DNA of 25,865 bases from a virus (taxonomy: Duplodnaviria > Heunggongvirae > Uroviricota > Caudoviricetes): IMG/VR virus record IMGVR_UViG_2582580933_000011, positions 1 to 25,865 of that record. The stretch is one strand, 5' to 3'. Made by a program: the position numbers and the translations under genes. The number at the start of each line of letters is the position of its first letter. Within the stretch, counting starts at the first letter, position 1. This document shows, one piece after another, positions 1 through 7,628 of this stretch. Below the pieces are notes generated by a model, which worked only from the letters and a program-made list of their open reading frames with translations, was not told the origin of the DNA and made no database searches.

Positions 1-131
1 GAAGACAGTGACCTCCGTCTGGCCGGTTCGGATTCGTACCTCGCAGAGGTCTTTCCTCGTTACCAGTGCCGTCACAATGACGGTTAAACAGATGACGATC
101 AGAGCGATTAACATCGCTTTTTGCTGCTTCA
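1..131 (-). CDS. hok: Hok/Gef-family type I toxin (small membrane toxin); 3' end cut by window start
   Basis: Minus-strand ORF with ATG at 129-131 preceded by GGAG. Manual translation MKQQKAMLIALIVICLTVIVTALVTRKDLCEVRIRTGQTEVTVF... fits the Hok/Gef pattern (single TM helix, conserved RKxLCE and TGQTEV motifs). A mok-like overlapping frame starts at ATG 188-190 in a different frame, as in hok/mok/sok loci. Confidence 0.75.
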
Positions 132-313
132 TAGCCTGCTTCTCCTTGACCTTTTGGTCGGTAAGAGGCTAATCTACGTATGCTAAGCATAGATATGGCC
201 TCAGATTAATGTTAAGCGTCTTGCAGGACGCGTAATGTTATCTGGGGCTTTCTTCTATCTGCTTTTCTGGTAATGCCTGAAGCAGATAGCCTCAAGCACC
301 CGCAACGATTGTA
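132..313. promoter_or_regulatory. hok mRNA leader region; expected location of mok start and a sok-type antisense RNA/promoter
   Basis: Inferred from the canonical architecture of hok/sok loci (antisense RNA overlapping the mok/hok leader). No specific promoter was mapped from sequence. Confidence 0.3.
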
Positions 314-559: not shown

Positions 560-609
560 CTCCGACCTCAAACTGAAAACACCAGGTGACTCCAGATTAG
601 AGCAATCTA

Positions 610-1455
610 TCACCCTCTGAATCCTGCCGGTATACCCCATTGTTCGTTATCTTTATTTTTGGCTAAAACCGCATTAAGAGCTTCGTTTACCGTCATGCAA
701 TGCGGCAGATTATCGAAGTTTGATACCCCGCCAATATCAGGAGAACGCTTGTTCTTCAGGTAAGCATATTTCCGCGCTGCCGCCTCTACTTTCTGCTTGA
801 ACTCATGTTTTTGAGCGCGTTTTTTGGATAACCGCAGATTGTCAGCCTTTGCTTTTGCCTCAGCGATCCATGAAGTCAATTTTTTGAGTCTGGTCGTTCC
901 GGCACCGCCGGAAACTGATCTTTTTGTTTTTTTAACTTGTGACTTCTTATTCTTTATTGCCACGTCATCCTGACAGGGGGAGGGGGTATCATTTTGACAT
1001 GGGGGTGTGGATAAAAAATTAAATAAAGCCAATGTCTTAGCGAGAACAGCTTTAACCTTGGTTGCCGCTGAAGAGATCTTTAATTTGCTTTCAATCAGCG
1101 CATTTTTGGCTTGTTGTGCGAAGGCCAAAAAGGATGGTGTAAACCGGTACAGGTTAGCGCGACGTTCACGGTGATCGCCGATAACAATCTCTACAGACAG
1201 AATTCCTTTGTTTACAGCTTCACGGAATGTACGAACGACGGTTGATTGGCTATAACCAGTTTCTGCCGCGATCAGGCGGTGAGGCTTGTGAATGAAGTAT
1301 TCACTGGTTGTTGCCGCGAGATTTGCACATTGCGACAGGATATGCCCGGCGCTACGGGATAGACCGGAGTGTGTTACAAAGCAGGCCAATTCATAGCCAG
1401 AAAAAGTAAAATCGCTCATCGTTATACAGCTCAGGAAAGTGACTTTAGCCAGCAT
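610..1455 (-). CDS. repL: RepL-like lytic-replicon initiator (P1 L-replicon type)
   Basis: 281-aa ORF immediately downstream of kilA on the same strand. N-terminal HTH-like region, very basic Lys-rich C-terminal half. Length and position match the kilA-repL unit of P1 as recalled. The start codon is ambiguous (no strong SD; an alternative ATG lies 12 codons in). Confidence 0.6.
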   Translation of the reverse strand: MLAKVTFLSCITMSDFTFSGYELACFVTHSGLSRSAGHILSQCANLAATTSEYFIHKPHRLIAAETGYSQSTVVRTFREAVNKGILSVEIVIGDHRERRANLYRFTPSFLAFAQQAKNALIESKLKISSAATKVKAVLAKTLALFNFLSTPPCQNDTPSPCQDDVAIKNKKSQVKKTKRSVSGGAGTTRLKKLTSWIAEAKAKADNLRLSKKRAQKHEFKQKVEAAARKYAYLKNKRSPDIGGVSNFDNLPHCMTVNEALNAVLAKNKDNEQWGIPAGFRG

Positions 1456-1484
1456 TACAATGCTGGTGGTTCTTACTACGTCTG

Positions 1485-2285
1485 TTAGCGCGTTGCCGCG
1501 ACAGGTACCAGCACACCAGCATCAAGCAATCGCTTCATCAGCCACTGCTGACCTTTGCCGGTTATACGAGTCGTGAAAGAAATCCTGCTTCCATTGCTTG
1601 TATCGATCACGGTTTCTTTAAGGGTGAAATACCCACGGGATATGTATTCTTGTTTGGGGACGTTTCTGCGTTCACCGGTTGCGATCAGAATTCCGTTATC
1701 ACGCAACCAGGTGAAGAGATAGTTTTGGCCCAGGCCGAGCACTTTGGCATAGTTGCCGATTAGAACCCCGCTGGCGGTAGCAACGCGTTCGGCGAATTCG
1801 ACTTTAGGTGCATCCATCAGCATTTTTTGCTCCAGCCGTTGCTTTTGCTCTGCCAGGTCAGCAGCCAAACGGAGAGCTTCTGGGAGGCTCTTCGGAATAG
1901 CAGGTTGTAATCTTCCAGCTCGATAGTCGATAAATGTCTGGTTTACCTTCAGCCGAAACGCGGGAGAAATCCAACCAGCGTACTCCACTGCGAGCAATTC
2001 ATGGGCAAAAGTGCCGCCGCCACGGCCTTCGAACGAAACTATGCAATTCTGCATAGTTTCTTTTTCAAGCTCTTCGATGAGCTGTTTGGCTGACAGCGTT
2101 CTTAGCCATTGAGCTGGCGCTTTATGGGCACCGAGTCCGCTCGCTCTGTGTAGAGCATTAAGGTTATAACGGCCAGCGCGGTCGGTCGTAATTTCAACAC
2201 CACAAATAACAGGCAGGGTGGTTGAAGGATCGACATTTTGATGAAGGTTTGATATATTCATATCCGCATTGAATGTTTGTTGCAT
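1485..2285 (-). CDS. kilA: KilA protein (KilA-N domain + C-terminal KilAC antirepressor-type domain)
   Basis: 266 aa. N-terminal KilA-N signature (RYNLNALHRASG ... FEGRGGGTFAHELLAVEYAGWISPAF). C-terminal region (LPEALRLAADLAEQK ... GNYAKVLGL ... TGKGQQWLMKRLLDAG) is about 65% identical to the C-terminus of the adjacent Ant ORF. GGAG 7-8 nt upstream of the ATG at 2285. Confidence 0.8.
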   Translation of the reverse strand: MQQTFNADMNISNLHQNVDPSTTLPVICGVEITTDRAGRYNLNALHRASGLGAHKAPAQWLRTLSAKQLIEELEKETMQNCIVSFEGRGGGTFAHELLAVEYAGWISPAFRLKVNQTFIDYRAGRLQPAIPKSLPEALRLAADLAEQKQRLEQKMLMDAPKVEFAERVATASGVLIGNYAKVLGLGQNYLFTWLRDNGILIATGERRNVPKQEYISRGYFTLKETVIDTSNGSRISFTTRITGKGQQWLMKRLLDAGVLVPVAATR

Positions 2286-2354
2286 TTTTTCTCCAAATTT
2301 GCATCAACCTTCAATCACCAGCTCGAAATGGTGATTCTTTGCACTTAGAAAACG

Positions 2355-2371
2355 AAATTTATTAGAGCAAA
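2355..2371 (-). promoter_or_regulatory. C1-repressor operator-like 17-mer (Op53-like) in the kilA promoter region
   Basis: Minus strand reads TTTGCTCTAATAAATTT, 16/17 matches to the P1 C1 operator consensus ATTGCTCTAATAAATTT as recalled. About 70-85 nt upstream of the kilA ATG. Confidence 0.6.
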
Positions 2372-2413
2372 TTTTTCTAACTCGATCCAGATCGGGTTGG
2401 TCGATCTGCTCAG

Positions 2414-2446
2414 AAACCTGCCAGTTTGCTGGCAGGTTTTTTTCTT
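2414..2446. terminator. hairpin with flanking A- and T-tracts (intrinsic-terminator-like) between ant and kilA
   Basis: Stem AAACCTGCCAG / CTGGCAGGTTT with loop TTTG, followed by a T-run on the plus strand and preceded by an A-run. On the minus strand (direction of ant) the U-tract is short (UUUCU), so read-through into kilA is plausible. Confidence 0.4.
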
Positions 2447-2449
2447 TTG

Positions 2450-3493
2450 TTAACCTATTGCTACTGGTTTTAACAAACCAGCATCAAGTAGCTTGCGAGT
2501 TAACCACTGCTGGCCTTTACCCGTTAATTGGGGCGTCAGCCGTATCTGGTAGCCATTTTCATCATCCAGCACCACTTCTTTCACCGTGAAATACCCGGCG
2601 TTAATGTACTGCTGGCGCGGTACGTTTTTGCGCGCACCAAAAGCCATGAGAATGCCGTTCTGGCGCAACCATGAGAAAAGGGCGTTTTGCTTAAGTCCAA
2701 CGACCTTTGCAAAGTTCCCGATCAGGATTCCATTGGCCACTGATACCCGGTCGGCAAAATCGACTTTAGGGGCTGCGGCCACCAGCTGTTGTTCCAGCTG
2801 CATTTTCTGTTCTGCCAACTCGGCAGCCAGGCGTAGAGCTTCTGGTAATGTTTGGGGGATCGATGGGGCAGGGGAGTTTGCCTGCTGCAATTCTTCCAGT
2901 TTGTCGATCAGCGAACGGCGGACGGCTTTTGATTCGCGTGCGGCGACTCGCAGGGCTTGTTTGTAGGTCATGGTTATGACAACCATAGGCGTACCGCCAC
3001 CTGGCGGCACGGTTGCACTTTTTGTGTAACCGTCCTCACCTTCTAATTCGTCGAGTATTTTTTCGATGAATTTGTTGTTCCGAACCTCTGGTTCCCCACA
3101 TAACTTACGCGCTTCATTGACCATCTTTAACAGTGTCAGGCTGTCGATTGTGTCTCCGGTGTTGGGGATGATATTCACGGCTGGTGCTGGCGTAGCTGAC
3201 GTAACAGGTGCTGTTTTTTCAACATTCAAATTATTACCGGTCATTCTATGTGCCTCCTTTCTCATTTCTGCTGCCACTGTTGCGTAACGTAGACGTCCTT
3301 GTTCAATCAAATAATCCCTGATCTCGGCTATCAGTAGCTTGTTGATCACAGCCTTATCTGTTCGGGTATAAAAACGTCTGGTTATCATGAAATAGTTGGC
3401 AATTGCGCCGGGGATCTCCCGTGTCGGCATACAGGCAGTGTGCAGGGCGATCGCTTCGGCTATGTCATTACGGGTGACGAGAGGTTTTTTCAT
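2450..3493 (-). CDS. ant1: antirepressor Ant1 (347 aa) with an in-frame internal start giving Ant2 (264 aa); C-terminal KilAC domain
   Basis: KilAC-type C-terminus (LPEALRLAAELAEQK ... GNFAKVVGL ... TGKGQQWLTRKLLDAG). Internal ATG at 3242-3244 is preceded by AGGAGG (plus 3253-3258) at 8-nt spacing. The ATG at 3491-3493 overlaps the stop of the upstream icd-like ORF (ATGA). Matches the P1 immI ant1/ant2 arrangement. Confidence 0.85.
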   Translation of the reverse strand: MKKPLVTRNDIAEAIALHTACMPTREIPGAIANYFMITRRFYTRTDKAVINKLLIAEIRDYLIEQGRLRYATVAAEMRKEAHRMTGNNLNVEKTAPVTSATPAPAVNIIPNTGDTIDSLTLLKMVNEARKLCGEPEVRNNKFIEKILDELEGEDGYTKSATVPPGGGTPMVVITMTYKQALRVAARESKAVRRSLIDKLEELQQANSPAPSIPQTLPEALRLAAELAEQKMQLEQQLVAAAPKVDFADRVSVANGILIGNFAKVVGLKQNALFSWLRQNGILMAFGARKNVPRQQYINAGYFTVKEVVLDDENGYQIRLTPQLTGKGQQWLTRKLLDAGLLKPVAIG

Positions 3494-3711
3494 AAACCCC
3501 CCTGAACGTCGGCAGAGAAGGGGAGGCTCCAGTAACTAAGTGAATTGCGCGAGTTAGTTGAAAAACGGGCAGTAAAAATGCAGGGGCCGTCAGGCAATTG
3601 AGAGCGTGCTTCGTCTTCTGTTGCTGCGATAACGAAGTGATAGTGGTGTTTTTTACAGGAATAGAAACGCCAGATGAATTCTTGGCGTGCGCAAGGATTG
3701 GCATTAACCAT
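3490..3711 (-). CDS. icd: Icd-like small protein (73 aa), translationally coupled to ant
   Basis: 73-codon ORF whose stop overlaps the ant1 start. GAGG 9 nt upstream of the ATG at 3709-3711, and that SD lies inside a sequence complementary to an upstream element (see c4-like feature). Identification is by position and length relative to P1 immI; the sequence itself was not independently recognised. Confidence 0.5.
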   Translation of the reverse strand: MVNANPCARQEFIWRFYSCKKHHYHFVIAATEDEARSQLPDGPCIFTARFSTNSRNSLSYWSLPFSADVQGGL

Positions 3712-3764
3712 AGTTACGGCCTCACAATCAGGTTTAACAACCTGCTACCCGCTGTCAAACAGGT

Positions 3765-3860
3765 GGCAGGACGTGACAGGGTTGACAGACTGGCGATTGT
3801 GAAACCAGCAGGCCGAAGCCTCCCCATCACGCCCCACCATAATTTGGGCGTAACGCGGTT
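3765..3860 (-). ncRNA. candidate c4-like antisense repressor RNA (approximate bounds)
   Basis: The central element 3781-3802 (plus gttgacagactggcgattgtga) is the inverted complement of motifs at 3722-3760 (CACAATCA ... CTGTCAAAC, overlapping the icd SD) and 3907-3929 (CACAATCA ... CTGTCAAAC). This is the a1/b1 - a'/b' - a2/b2 layout described for P1/P7 c4. Ends of the RNA cannot be fixed from sequence alone. Confidence 0.4.
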
Positions 3861-4025
3861 TAACGGACACAAAAATACCGCAATATCGGAAATCTGCGGT
3901 TGTCCGCACAATCATTCAGGCTGTCAAACCTGGTCGCAGAATTTGCTACGACGGCGGAACTATAAGCCTGAACGATTAAAAGGTCAATATGATGCGAAAA
4001 GATAGCATTCGTGACTTAAAAATAC

Positions 4026-4042
4026 AAATTTATTAGAGCATT
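4026..4042 (-). promoter_or_regulatory. C1-repressor operator-like 17-mer (Op51-like) upstream of the immI transcription unit
   Basis: Minus strand reads AATGCTCTAATAAATTT, 16/17 to the consensus ATTGCTCTAATAAATTT. The flanking sequence is also shared with the kilA site (plus 2343-2369 versus 4012-4040: ACTTA.AAAA..AAATTTATTAGAGCA). Confidence 0.6.
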
Positions 4043-4138
4043 GTTTGTTTAATAAATGCACAATTGGATCTAATAACCTCTTTTTTTTAAAGGCGAAAAT
4101 ATGTACCCTAAATGAGTTATAAGGCAGGTGAGGTTATA

Positions 4139-4630
4139 ATGAGAAAACTATTACTACCGTTATTATTTATGGCTGGGACTGTTAATGCAGCATCAAGCGT
4201 AAAGGAGATTTGTACCGATTATACGAAATACCTTGGGCACGTTTACGGATTTGCTGTCAGTGAAGACGAATCCATGCGCAAGAAGTTACTGTCAGATATG
4301 AAGCGCCTTAAACTTTCTGAAGCGATGGTGCAGCAGGAACTGTATAAAGTCTCAACCAACGCAAATGCTAAATACCAATATTCTCGCCTATTAAACCCCG
4401 ATGCAAATGAGATCAATCGAAGCACTTTCGATTATATGGTAAAGGCATGCGAAACCGCTCCTGATTTTGCTATCCCTAGCTGGGGTGTGCTGGTGGCGAG
4501 CAATGCCGTTAATAAAGAAGATGTTGGAAGAAATGGCATTGACTCAATCAGAAATGCCCCAGGAATGCGCCATCAAAACGTGCAGGGTACGCTTGAAGAA
4601 CGAGCCAGGGGGCCGGGTGTAGCTCCATAA
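4139..4630 (+). CDS. secreted (signal-peptide) protein with a C-terminal motif shared with the Sit protein
   Basis: ORF track 4112..4630. The likely start at ATG 4139 has GGTGAGG upstream and gives MRKLLLPLLFMAGTVNA|ASS, a signal peptide with an AxA-type cleavage site and no lipobox Cys. C-terminus NGIDSIRNAPGMRHQNVQGTLEERARGPG matches Sit segments. The body of the gene is AT-rich, the 3' end GC-richer. Confidence 0.6.
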   Translation: MRKLLLPLLFMAGTVNAASSVKEICTDYTKYLGHVYGFAVSEDESMRKKLLSDMKRLKLSEAMVQQELYKVSTNANAKYQYSRLLNPDANEINRSTFDYMVKACETAPDFAIPSWGVLVASNAVNKEDVGRNGIDSIRNAPGMRHQNVQGTLEERARGPGVAP

Positions 4631-4718
4631 TTTAATGAATAATATTAAATTCTCTGGGCATAGTGGATCTAACAATATGGACTATGCCTATAATATCTAA
4701 AACAAAAAGGATAAAAAT

Positions 4719-5225
4719 ATGAAATTATATAAGTCATTGTATAGCTTTTTATTAATGTCCTCTTTTCTGCCATTATCAGCAATGGCAGGTTCTACCGTTT
4801 GGACGGTAGGAGGTGAGCAAGGGTGGAGAGAAATCTCTGCAACCAATGACGATGGTTATACAATTAACTTTTCTTGTGATGCTGGAGCAAGGGAAGGTTC
4901 AGAAGATCATATCGCTGGAAGAAATTTGTATGTAAGCGGAGGAAAAGAGAATGCCGATTTTTCTACACGCGACACAATATCACGTAAAGCAGATGTAATT
5001 ACTTTAATTGTTGGCCCGGATAGTTTTAATATTGGCACGCAAAACACTGCTCCTAATCGTAGGGAATGGTATTCATTTTGGAAGGCAGTGTCATCTACAA
5101 ATGAAAAAAACATAGATGTATATATCGGTTCGAGTCGAATCACATCATTCACTCTGGATGGTATTTCCAGTATTTATACAGAAGCTAAAAATGACGGGTG
5201 TTTAAAACAAGATGACGGTGAATAA
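4719..5225 (+). CDS. secreted/periplasmic protein, unknown function
   Basis: 168 aa. N-terminal signal peptide MKLYKSLYSFLLMSSFLPLSAMA|GST, two Cys in the mature part. AT-rich. Its end overlaps the start of the next gene by 14 nt. Confidence 0.6.
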   Translation: MKLYKSLYSFLLMSSFLPLSAMAGSTVWTVGGEQGWREISATNDDGYTINFSCDAGAREGSEDHIAGRNLYVSGGKENADFSTRDTISRKADVITLIVGPDSFNIGTQNTAPNRREWYSFWKAVSSTNEKNIDVYIGSSRITSFTLDGISSIYTEAKNDGCLKQDDGE

Positions 5226-6285
5226 AGTGAAGGATATTAAACACATTTCGCTTAACTCTAATAATAAAGCTGAAGGCACTGTCTTTTATGATTATTTAAA
5301 TGAAATTAAAGGAGTGAGGCATAAAAAGATAAGTGGTTTATTAAATTCAGAATATATTTACAAGAGTTTAGTTAAACAGTTTGGAACAGTTAAAAAACAA
5401 GAATTAATTAATGATTGTTTTCGAAAAGAACTTGAGTCTTTACCAAAAGTTACGAGAATTGCACACCAGTTTCGTGAACAAATGGTATTTTTACAGAAAC
5501 AGTATCAGGCGGCTTTTCCCAGTGATGCAAATGAGCATATTCAAATAATTAAAAATCAAGCTGAAATGGCTATGCCGTTACGAAAACACTCAGAAGCCAT
5601 TAATAAGATAGCTGGCTTAAATAATATGGAGGAGGTATTTAAAGAATTACACTCTAATATAAATTACAAAATTAAGATAAGCAAAGATATTAAAGAAATA
5701 ATAAAGCAGTATAATAAAACAAGAAGTGTATTATTAGAGCAAGTAGTAGAGCTTGGGCTTGTTACTATCGCGCAGGCTTATGCTAATGATTCTATAAAAT
5801 CAGCGCATACCGAAAGTGAGCATCAAAACAAAGGATTTAATAAATCTAGTTCGACGTTTTTTGATTCATTTAAGGCGCTTCCTTCTCCTATTCAGATCTT
5901 CCTTCTGTGGATTTTTTATCAAGTGGTGCTTGGCGCTATAACTGATTATGCAAAAGAAAAGACATTATCGCAAATTTACAAGATGGAATCATATCTTCTA
6001 TCTCTAAATGAGGATAAGCCAATATCTAAGCAAAAGCTAACACAAGAAAATAAAGATATTCAGTGGGAGGATCTTAATAATTTTAGAGCTATAACAGGTG
6101 ATAACGTAAGGTTGCATGTCGGCCCTTCTTTAAATAGTGAAGTGATTGAATGCATTGGCAAAAACACAATTGTTGCTATTTTAGATAAGAAAGATCGTCA
6201 ATGGCTTTACGTGCAGGTTAAATCAGGGGATGAGTTTATTACTGGTTGGATTACACGAACATACACAAAGCCTCTTAAGGCTTGA
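5212..6285 (+). CDS. Lys/Asn-rich protein with one predicted TM segment and a C-terminal SH3b-like domain
   Basis: 357 aa. Hydrophobic segment PIQIFLLWIFYQVVLGAIT. C-terminal approx 60 aa (VRLHVGPSLNSEVIECIGKNTIVAILDKKDRQWLYVQVKSGDEFITGWITRTY) has the bacterial SH3 pattern. Very AT-rich, strong compositional contrast with neighbours. Confidence 0.55.
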   Translation: MTVNKVKDIKHISLNSNNKAEGTVFYDYLNEIKGVRHKKISGLLNSEYIYKSLVKQFGTVKKQELINDCFRKELESLPKVTRIAHQFREQMVFLQKQYQAAFPSDANEHIQIIKNQAEMAMPLRKHSEAINKIAGLNNMEEVFKELHSNINYKIKISKDIKEIIKQYNKTRSVLLEQVVELGLVTIAQAYANDSIKSAHTESEHQNKGFNKSSSTFFDSFKALPSPIQIFLLWIFYQVVLGAITDYAKEKTLSQIYKMESYLLSLNEDKPISKQKLTQENKDIQWEDLNNFRAITGDNVRLHVGPSLNSEVIECIGKNTIVAILDKKDRQWLYVQVKSGDEFITGWITRTYTKPLKA

Positions 6286-6415
6286 ATTTTATCTCCGCAT
6301 CTTCGGATTGGGTGTTGATGACGATGTGCTACTTGAAGCACTTGAGTTGTTTTAACGTAGTATCTGAAATGTGTAGACTGACCGGTAACAAATGACAACT
6401 CGTAGAATCGGTTAA

Positions 6416-7628
<1,213 letters not shown>

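Follow-up and report, generated by a model that had tools for sequence, protein, structure and literature searches.

Two C1-type operators before kilA-repL and the immI operon of a P1-like phage-plasmid are very probably Op53 and Op51

Which repressor governs two nearly identical 17-mers that precede the lytic replicon and the antirepressor unit of a tailed-phage sequence, when no gene for that repressor is visible nearby? The sequence in question, hereafter the window, is the whole stretch of 25,865 nucleotides (nt) analysed, positions 1 to 25,865 of IMG/VR virus record IMGVR_UViG_2582580933_000011. In an original prediction made from the letters of the window, both 17-mers had been read as C1 operators of phage P1 type, each matching the C1 consensus at 16 of 17 positions, and direct reading of the sequence bears this out. 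Positions 2355-2371 read AAATTTATTAGAGCAAA on the plus strand and positions 4026-4042 read AAATTTATTAGAGCATT, with the reverse complements TTTGCTCTAATAAATTT and AATGCTCTAATAAATTT, respectively, on the minus strand; each agrees with the C1 consensus ATTGCTCTAATAAATTT at 16/17 positions, and the two agree with each other at 15/17. The consensus used there is the published one, described together with 22 operators (PMC8546580), and the 20 annotated operators of P1 yield it as well. Taken together with their position, the two 17-mers are very probably Op53 (OrepL) and Op51 (Oc4) of a P1-like phage-plasmid controlled by C1:

2355-2371, minus strand: putative C1 operator, orthologue of P1 OrepL (former Op53), TTTGCTCTAATAAATTT; corresponds to a P1 protein_bind feature in AF234172
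4026-4042, minus strand: putative C1 operator, orthologue of P1 Oc4 (former Op51), AATGCTCTAATAAATTT; corresponds to a P1 protein_bind feature in AF234172

Matches this close are not expected by chance. Even with up to three mismatches to the consensus allowed, the 25.9-kb window contains no match besides these two, against 0.18 expected, and 3 of 100 shuffles reached two matches; with at most one mismatch, 100 dinucleotide-preserving shuffles put the expectation at 0.00. A position weight matrix (PWM) was built from 18 of the 20 annotated P1 operator 17-mers, leaving out Op51 and Op53, and scanning the window with it returned the two sites at the top of the ranking, with 25.0 bits for Op51 and 21.4 bits for Op53 (25.0-25.8 and 21.4-24.0 bits, respectively, over the PWM runs). 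The third-ranked site of the window reaches 17.7 bits, top scores in shuffled windows average 12.2 bits, and the probability of a maximum of at least 21 bits was 0.003 in 300 windows simulated with a first-order Markov model. As 19 of the 20 annotated P1 operators score 15-27 bits (the exception is Op99b with 5.5 bits), both sites fall inside the score range of known P1 operators.

A third candidate, CTTGCTCTAATAATACA at 5727-5743 on the minus strand, scores 17.2-17.7 bits, which is comparable to P1 Op55 and above Op99c, and matches operator positions 2-13 perfectly. It lies antisense within an open reading frame (ORF) of 357 amino acids with an SH3 domain, and given this coding location and the 5% of simulated windows that score as high, we regard it as unproven. 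Separately, the P1 operator Omat/Op2b (AF234172, 2628-2645), annotated as a feature of 18 nt, seems to have been given the wrong strand; CATGCACTAATAAATAT, which resembles an operator, stands on the plus strand at 2628-2644.

Position links the two sites to P1. Window positions 596-4278 are 96.8% identical to P1 51585-47904, and in the pairwise alignment the operators, their 3' flanks and the promoter hexamers are identical to P1 at both sites. GenBank AF234172 marks both aligned positions as binding sites of the 'phage repressor C1' (protein_bind), and each 17-mer overlaps the sigma-70 promoter of a gene with an early or immunity function, Op53 at the -10 and Op51 at the -35 element. Sequence, position and overlap with a promoter all place the two sites in the C1 operator family. 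This positional orthology to the experimentally defined Op53 and Op51 supports the proposal that kilA-repL and the antirepressor unit are probably under a P1 C1-type repressor. In P1, C1 binding to the identical sequences and repression in vivo are established (literature cited in PMC9948254).

The first of the two sites stands before the lytic replicon, where the following elements were located:

2361-2389, minus strand: promoter P53 (PkilA), -35 TGGATC at 2384-2389 and -10 TCTAAT at 2361-2366; P1 annotation (AF234172, X15638) transferred by alignment
2384-2387, 2390-2393 and 2403-2406, unstranded: three Dam GATC sites of the kilA regulatory region in the P1 annotation, all present
1485-2285, minus strand: kilA, with KilA-N and ANT Pfam domains, orthologous to P1 kilA
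610-1455, minus strand: repL (which holds oriL in P1), 97% nucleotide identity, at the position of P1 repL
2230-2258, plus strand: antisense promoter P53as (PaskilA), TCGACA-17-TATATT; blind promoter scan and P1 annotation
2412-2441, unstranded: G+C-rich hairpin between the ant1 stop codon and P53, followed by a T-run on the plus strand; terminator scan

P1 has the same 17-mer, TTTGCTCTAATAAATTT, an identical sequence from the operator to the kilA start, and the same P53 -10 and -35 hexamers, three Dam sites and antisense promoter; the differences amount to two substitutions in P53, both in the spacer, and one more upstream. OrepL/Op53 is annotated as the site that 'controls expression of kilA and repL' (AF234172), and in P1 Op53 overlaps P53 and blocks kilA-repL expression (PMC9948254). 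Because the -10 hexamer of P53 (TCTAAT) lies inside Op53 in the window as well, C1 bound there would cover it and exclude RNA polymerase, so that kilA and repL, and with them the lytic origin inside repL, would stay silent in the lysogen. The P53as transcript passes over Op53 and would end ~180 nt downstream at the 2412-2441 hairpin, which probably terminates both this antisense RNA and immI transcription. Antisense RNA from P53as may form a second layer of control on kilA-repL.

The second site heads the immI operon (c4-icd-ant), the parts of which are arranged as follows:

3999-4028, minus strand: promoter P51a (P2c4), -35 TTTGTAT at 4022-4028 and -10 TATCTT at 3999-4004; P1 annotation transferred by alignment
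3959-3987, minus strand: promoter P51b (P1c4), TTGACC-17-TATAGT, outside the operator; promoter scan (10/12 matches) and P1 annotation
3913-3965, minus strand: a1/b1 targets of the C4 antisense RNA; Rfam RF03163, 56 bits
3759-3844, minus strand: C4 antisense RNA gene; Rfam RF01695, 68.4 bits, and P1 c4 annotation
3490-3711, minus strand: icd, orthologous to P1 icd
2450-3493, minus strand: ant1 (antirepressor) with ant2 in frame within it; ANT Pfam domain, orthologous to P1 ant1/ant2

In P1, the constitutive promoter P51b keeps C4 synthesis going, and C1 control acts on P51a. At P1 Oc4/Op51, which 'controls expression of c4' (AF234172), the same 17-mer AATGCTCTAATAAATTT, a 3' flank identical to +12 and the same P51a and P51b hexamers are found; the window differs by a single substitution in the spacer of P51a and another immediately 5' of the operator. 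The other immI parts of P1, namely the C4 RNA, which is intact, the a1/b1 and a2/b2 targets, icd and ant, are likewise all in the window. Since Op51 overlaps the -35 element of P51a by 3 nt, C1 would shut off P51a, the upstream one of the two tandem immI promoters. P51b would stay free and keep making the c4-icd-ant transcript, from which processed C4 RNA would block icd and ant expression. Upon inactivation of C1 by Coi or Ant, P53 and P51a would both fire. We infer C1 binding, repression and the constitutive activity of P51b in this element from the P1 literature and annotation.

A few (approximately three) P1-like loci in IMG/VR have an inverted-repeat, bivalent-looking Op51 before c4, ATTGCTCTAATAAATTTGATTTATTAGAGCA or a close variant, in place of the monovalent site.

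Comparison with other immunity systems places this arrangement further. P7 is 98.3% identical to the window over the aligned part of 596-6500 (53% of the 6.5-kb query), shares the gene order repL-kilA-ant-icd-c4 and has Op(rep) and Op(c4) annotated at matching positions. It differs in that its Op(c4) reads TCTGCTCTAATAAATTT, and, unlike in the window, upf50.5/upf50.0 lie on its divergent side and its Op(rap) after repL is intact. The operators of lambdoid CI/Cro likewise serve a master repressor that occludes early lytic promoters. However, lambdoid sites are clustered and palindromic, whereas P1 C1 sites are asymmetric 17-mers at ~20 places in the genome, and no operator symmetry was seen at the two window sites.

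The similarity of the two sites extends beyond the 17-mer. A shared flank had been noted at plus-strand positions 2343-2369 and 4012-4040; the sharing is real, but the start at 4012 was off by 2 nt, the ungapped register pairing 2343-2354 with 4014-4025:

2343-2354, minus strand: conserved 3' flank of Op53, CGTTTTCTAAGT; approximately +1 to +13 of the P53 transcript, identical to P1
4014-4025, minus strand: conserved 3' flank of Op51, GTATTTTTAAGT; part of the P51a -35 element and start of the spacer, identical to P1

Read on the minus strand, CGTTTTCTAAGT (2354-2343) and GTATTTTTAAGT (4025-4014) are identical at 8/12 positions. On the 3' side of the 17-mer, a T-run and then TAAG or TATG are present at most monovalent P1 operators; when all 20 P1 operators are compared, each column from +2 to +11 (T-run, then A, A/T, G) holds 0.25-0.87 bit, and column information drops below ~0.25 bit beyond +11. 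With a flank matrix built from the 14 other monovalent P1 operators, the Op53 flank ranks in the top 0.04% and the Op51 flank in the top 0.18% of window 12-mers, the latter in the top 1.4% when compared only with 12-mers of matching A+T content, and in leave-one-out analysis the flank reached the top 1% for 11 of 16 monovalent operators. Scanning IMG/VR with the 15-mer core recovered P1-like matches that are almost all orthologues of Op53, Op51 and Op72a; the Op51 flank is invariant in nearly all of the 59 P1-like loci with an Op51-type site, while 76 unrelated contigs carrying the same core by chance, which serve as a negative control, have no such flank. In the c4-icd-ant/repL (immI/repL) locus of phage D6 no P1-type operator was found, and this locus is uninformative for phylogenetic footprinting. 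A separate idea, that the flank is the degenerate second half of a bivalent operator, was discarded as it has no similarity to ATTAGAGCAAT.

What the flank means can be read in two ways. The explanation to which we give even weight is that the similarity is a by-product of promoter elements 3' of many operators, either -35 TTGNTT or -10 hexamers, of a shared ancestry of the operator-promoter cassettes, or of both, rather than a repressor contact. The flank signal is indeed partly made of promoter hexamers: according to the P1 annotation, the -35 elements of P51a, Pdmt, P1pmgT, Plpa and P4cre have their first base among operator positions 15-17, positions 19-24 are occupied by the -10 elements of P2ref and P1coi, and PpmgR and P2pmgT are predicted as TTGCTC-17-TAAAAC with the flank used as -10. 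Yet the Op53 flank lies downstream of the -10 element in the transcribed leader and cannot serve P53 as a promoter element, and at the operators that overlap a -35 element the conserved TTTTTAAG/TTTTTATG block continues into the spacer, where conservation is not the norm. We also consider, more tentatively and with rather more doubt than belief, that the functional C1 operator is longer than the 17-mer and includes a conserved 3' extension from +4 to +11 (TTTNTAAG). Such an extension (a T-run, then TAAG, TATG or TAAA), present at most monovalent operators and at both window sites, could be a contact for C1 or the co-repressor Lxc, or alternatively its phased A/T tract could bend the DNA and so adjust how strong the operator is.

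The operators had been put forward as the strongest evidence for a P1-like assignment; stronger evidence lies in the nucleotide identity of 95-98% to P1 over ~17 kb. Four collinear P1 blocks with 95.3-98.2% nucleotide identity together cover ~17.3 of the 25.9 kb, and besides 596-4278 the other three hold the tail and baseplate genes and the lyd/darA region (95-98% identity), the window spanning P1 map coordinates 51.6 to 27.5 kb. In collections of phages, plasmids and complete E. coli genomes, the best matches are P1, P7 and P1-like plasmids, and the top matches in all three are mosaics, 97-99% identical over 81-88% of the window, with no identical record among them. The segment from Op53 through immI to Op51 is present at a coverage of at least 80% in 437 PLSDB plasmids. 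Identity and synteny over immI, the lytic replicon and the tail/baseplate modules point to membership of Punavirus (P1-like phage-plasmids), and judged by these alignments the window belongs firmly to the P1 family. Among complete relatives, the E. fergusonii plasmid pRHB31-C17_2 (NZ_CP057257.1) comes closest, with 98% identity over 88% of the window.

Two points weigh against C1 control as we propose it. One is that the c1 gene of the element itself is not visible in the window, c1 being known from relatives: as had been predicted, a tblastn search of the window with P1 C1 gave no match (best E-value 0.72), because P1 c1 maps at 93.2-94.1 kb, outside the coordinates 51.6 to 27.5 kb to which the window corresponds. 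The search for c1 did succeed in the closest complete relative, as pRHB31-C17_2 encodes a 'phage repressor protein C1' with 98.9% amino-acid identity to P1 C1, together with coi and lxc, and has 16 PWM sites of at least 15 bits, namely identical Op53 and Op51 and 14 more. We infer from such relatives that c1 is present in the rest of the element; C1 would then be encoded about 30-40 kb away and bind each asymmetric 17-bp site. The other point concerns the third P1 operator of this region:

596-606, minus strand: remnant ATTGCTCTAAT of P1 Orlf/Op55, just after the repL stop codon; alignment with P1

In P1, Op55 is an intact, weak operator, ATTGCTCTAATTATAAC, directly after the repL stop codon. 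In the window its 3' half has been replaced, P1 and P7 homology stopping mid-operator, exactly there, and the 17-mer now at this position, ATTGCTCTAATCTGGAG, scores 2.5 bits, compared with 18.2 bits for P1 Op55. With Op55 destroyed, regulation downstream of repL therefore differs from P1.

Both points could be taken to mean that the operators are relics in a defective or heteroimmune P1-like plasmid, whose repressor has been lost or has changed specificity and whose sites are no longer used. P1-like elements are mosaic, half of Op55 and the sim genes are already gone here, and the D6 region manages without any P1-type operator. Such decay would be hard to reconcile with two 17-mers, flanks and a complete set of promoter hexamers that are all intact and identical to P1, or with the C1 of the closest complete relatives, 98.9% identical to that of P1 and accompanied by a full operator set. 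Moreover, unrepressed kilA-repL would be lethal or destabilising to the host according to established knowledge of P1 (PMC9948254), and we consider the relic explanation very improbable. That the 17-mers are chance A+T-rich sequence with no regulatory role is next to negligible in our view: the same 15-mer core does arise by chance in the 76 unrelated viral contigs mentioned above, but there it lacks the conserved flank, zero matches are expected in the window at up to one mismatch, and the location of both sites exactly at annotated P1 operator positions, before the expected genes, refutes coincidence.

Around these conserved operators the element is mosaic in several places. Where P1 has rlfA/rlfB, beyond the broken Op55, we identified one RNA element:

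127-301, minus strand: sok antitoxin RNA; Rfam RF01794, 109.8 bits

Several relatives have a hokD toxin gene annotated at the corresponding place, and a type I toxin-antitoxin module of hok/sok type therefore sits in the position of rlfA/rlfB. On the other side, the P1 superimmunity genes simB/simC are replaced at 4279-6386 on the plus strand by three ORFs. The first begins at the simA start codon and is extended to 172 amino acids, with a weak PTPlike_phytase match below the cut-off, the second encodes 168 amino acids and belongs to no family, and the third encodes 357 amino acids with a C-terminal SH3_3 domain. Three E. fergusonii/E. coli plasmids have this module with 100% identity, and 34 contain it at a coverage of at least 80%. 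In many P1/P7-like plasmids homology with the window stops exactly at the 5' edge of Op51 (window 4040-4042), and operator positions 1-2 of Op51 vary among such plasmids (AA, TC, CC and GT). Combined with the break in Op55, this edge thus places C1 operators at boundaries between mosaic modules, as far as the alignments tell.

Mosaicism extends into the immI operon itself:

3712-3990, minus strand: C4 elements of hybrid P1/P7 type, with loops at ~3795-3775, a1/b1 at ~3935-3905 and a2/b2 at ~3758-3722

In the window C4, the a' loop together with its a1/a2 targets matches the P7 type (CACAATC / GATTGTG), and the b' loop together with its b1/b2 targets matches the P1 type (CTGTCAA / TTTGACAG). 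Among 77 P1-like loci in IMG/VR, the a'/b' types are P7/P7 in 35, P1/P1 in 17, P1/P7 in 14 and P7/P1, as here, in 11, and loop and target types co-vary perfectly wherever they are readable. This suggests four immI specificity classes, made by recombination between the two C4 loops.

Overall, the arrangement of operators, promoters and genes described here is that of textbook P1 tripartite immunity, which is already known. Assignment of the window to the P1 family and its probably retained C1 control help its annotation and add nothing to the biology of P1 itself; what goes beyond existing annotation is the quantified conservation of the 3' operator flank, the mosaicism around the operators and the C4 specificity classes.

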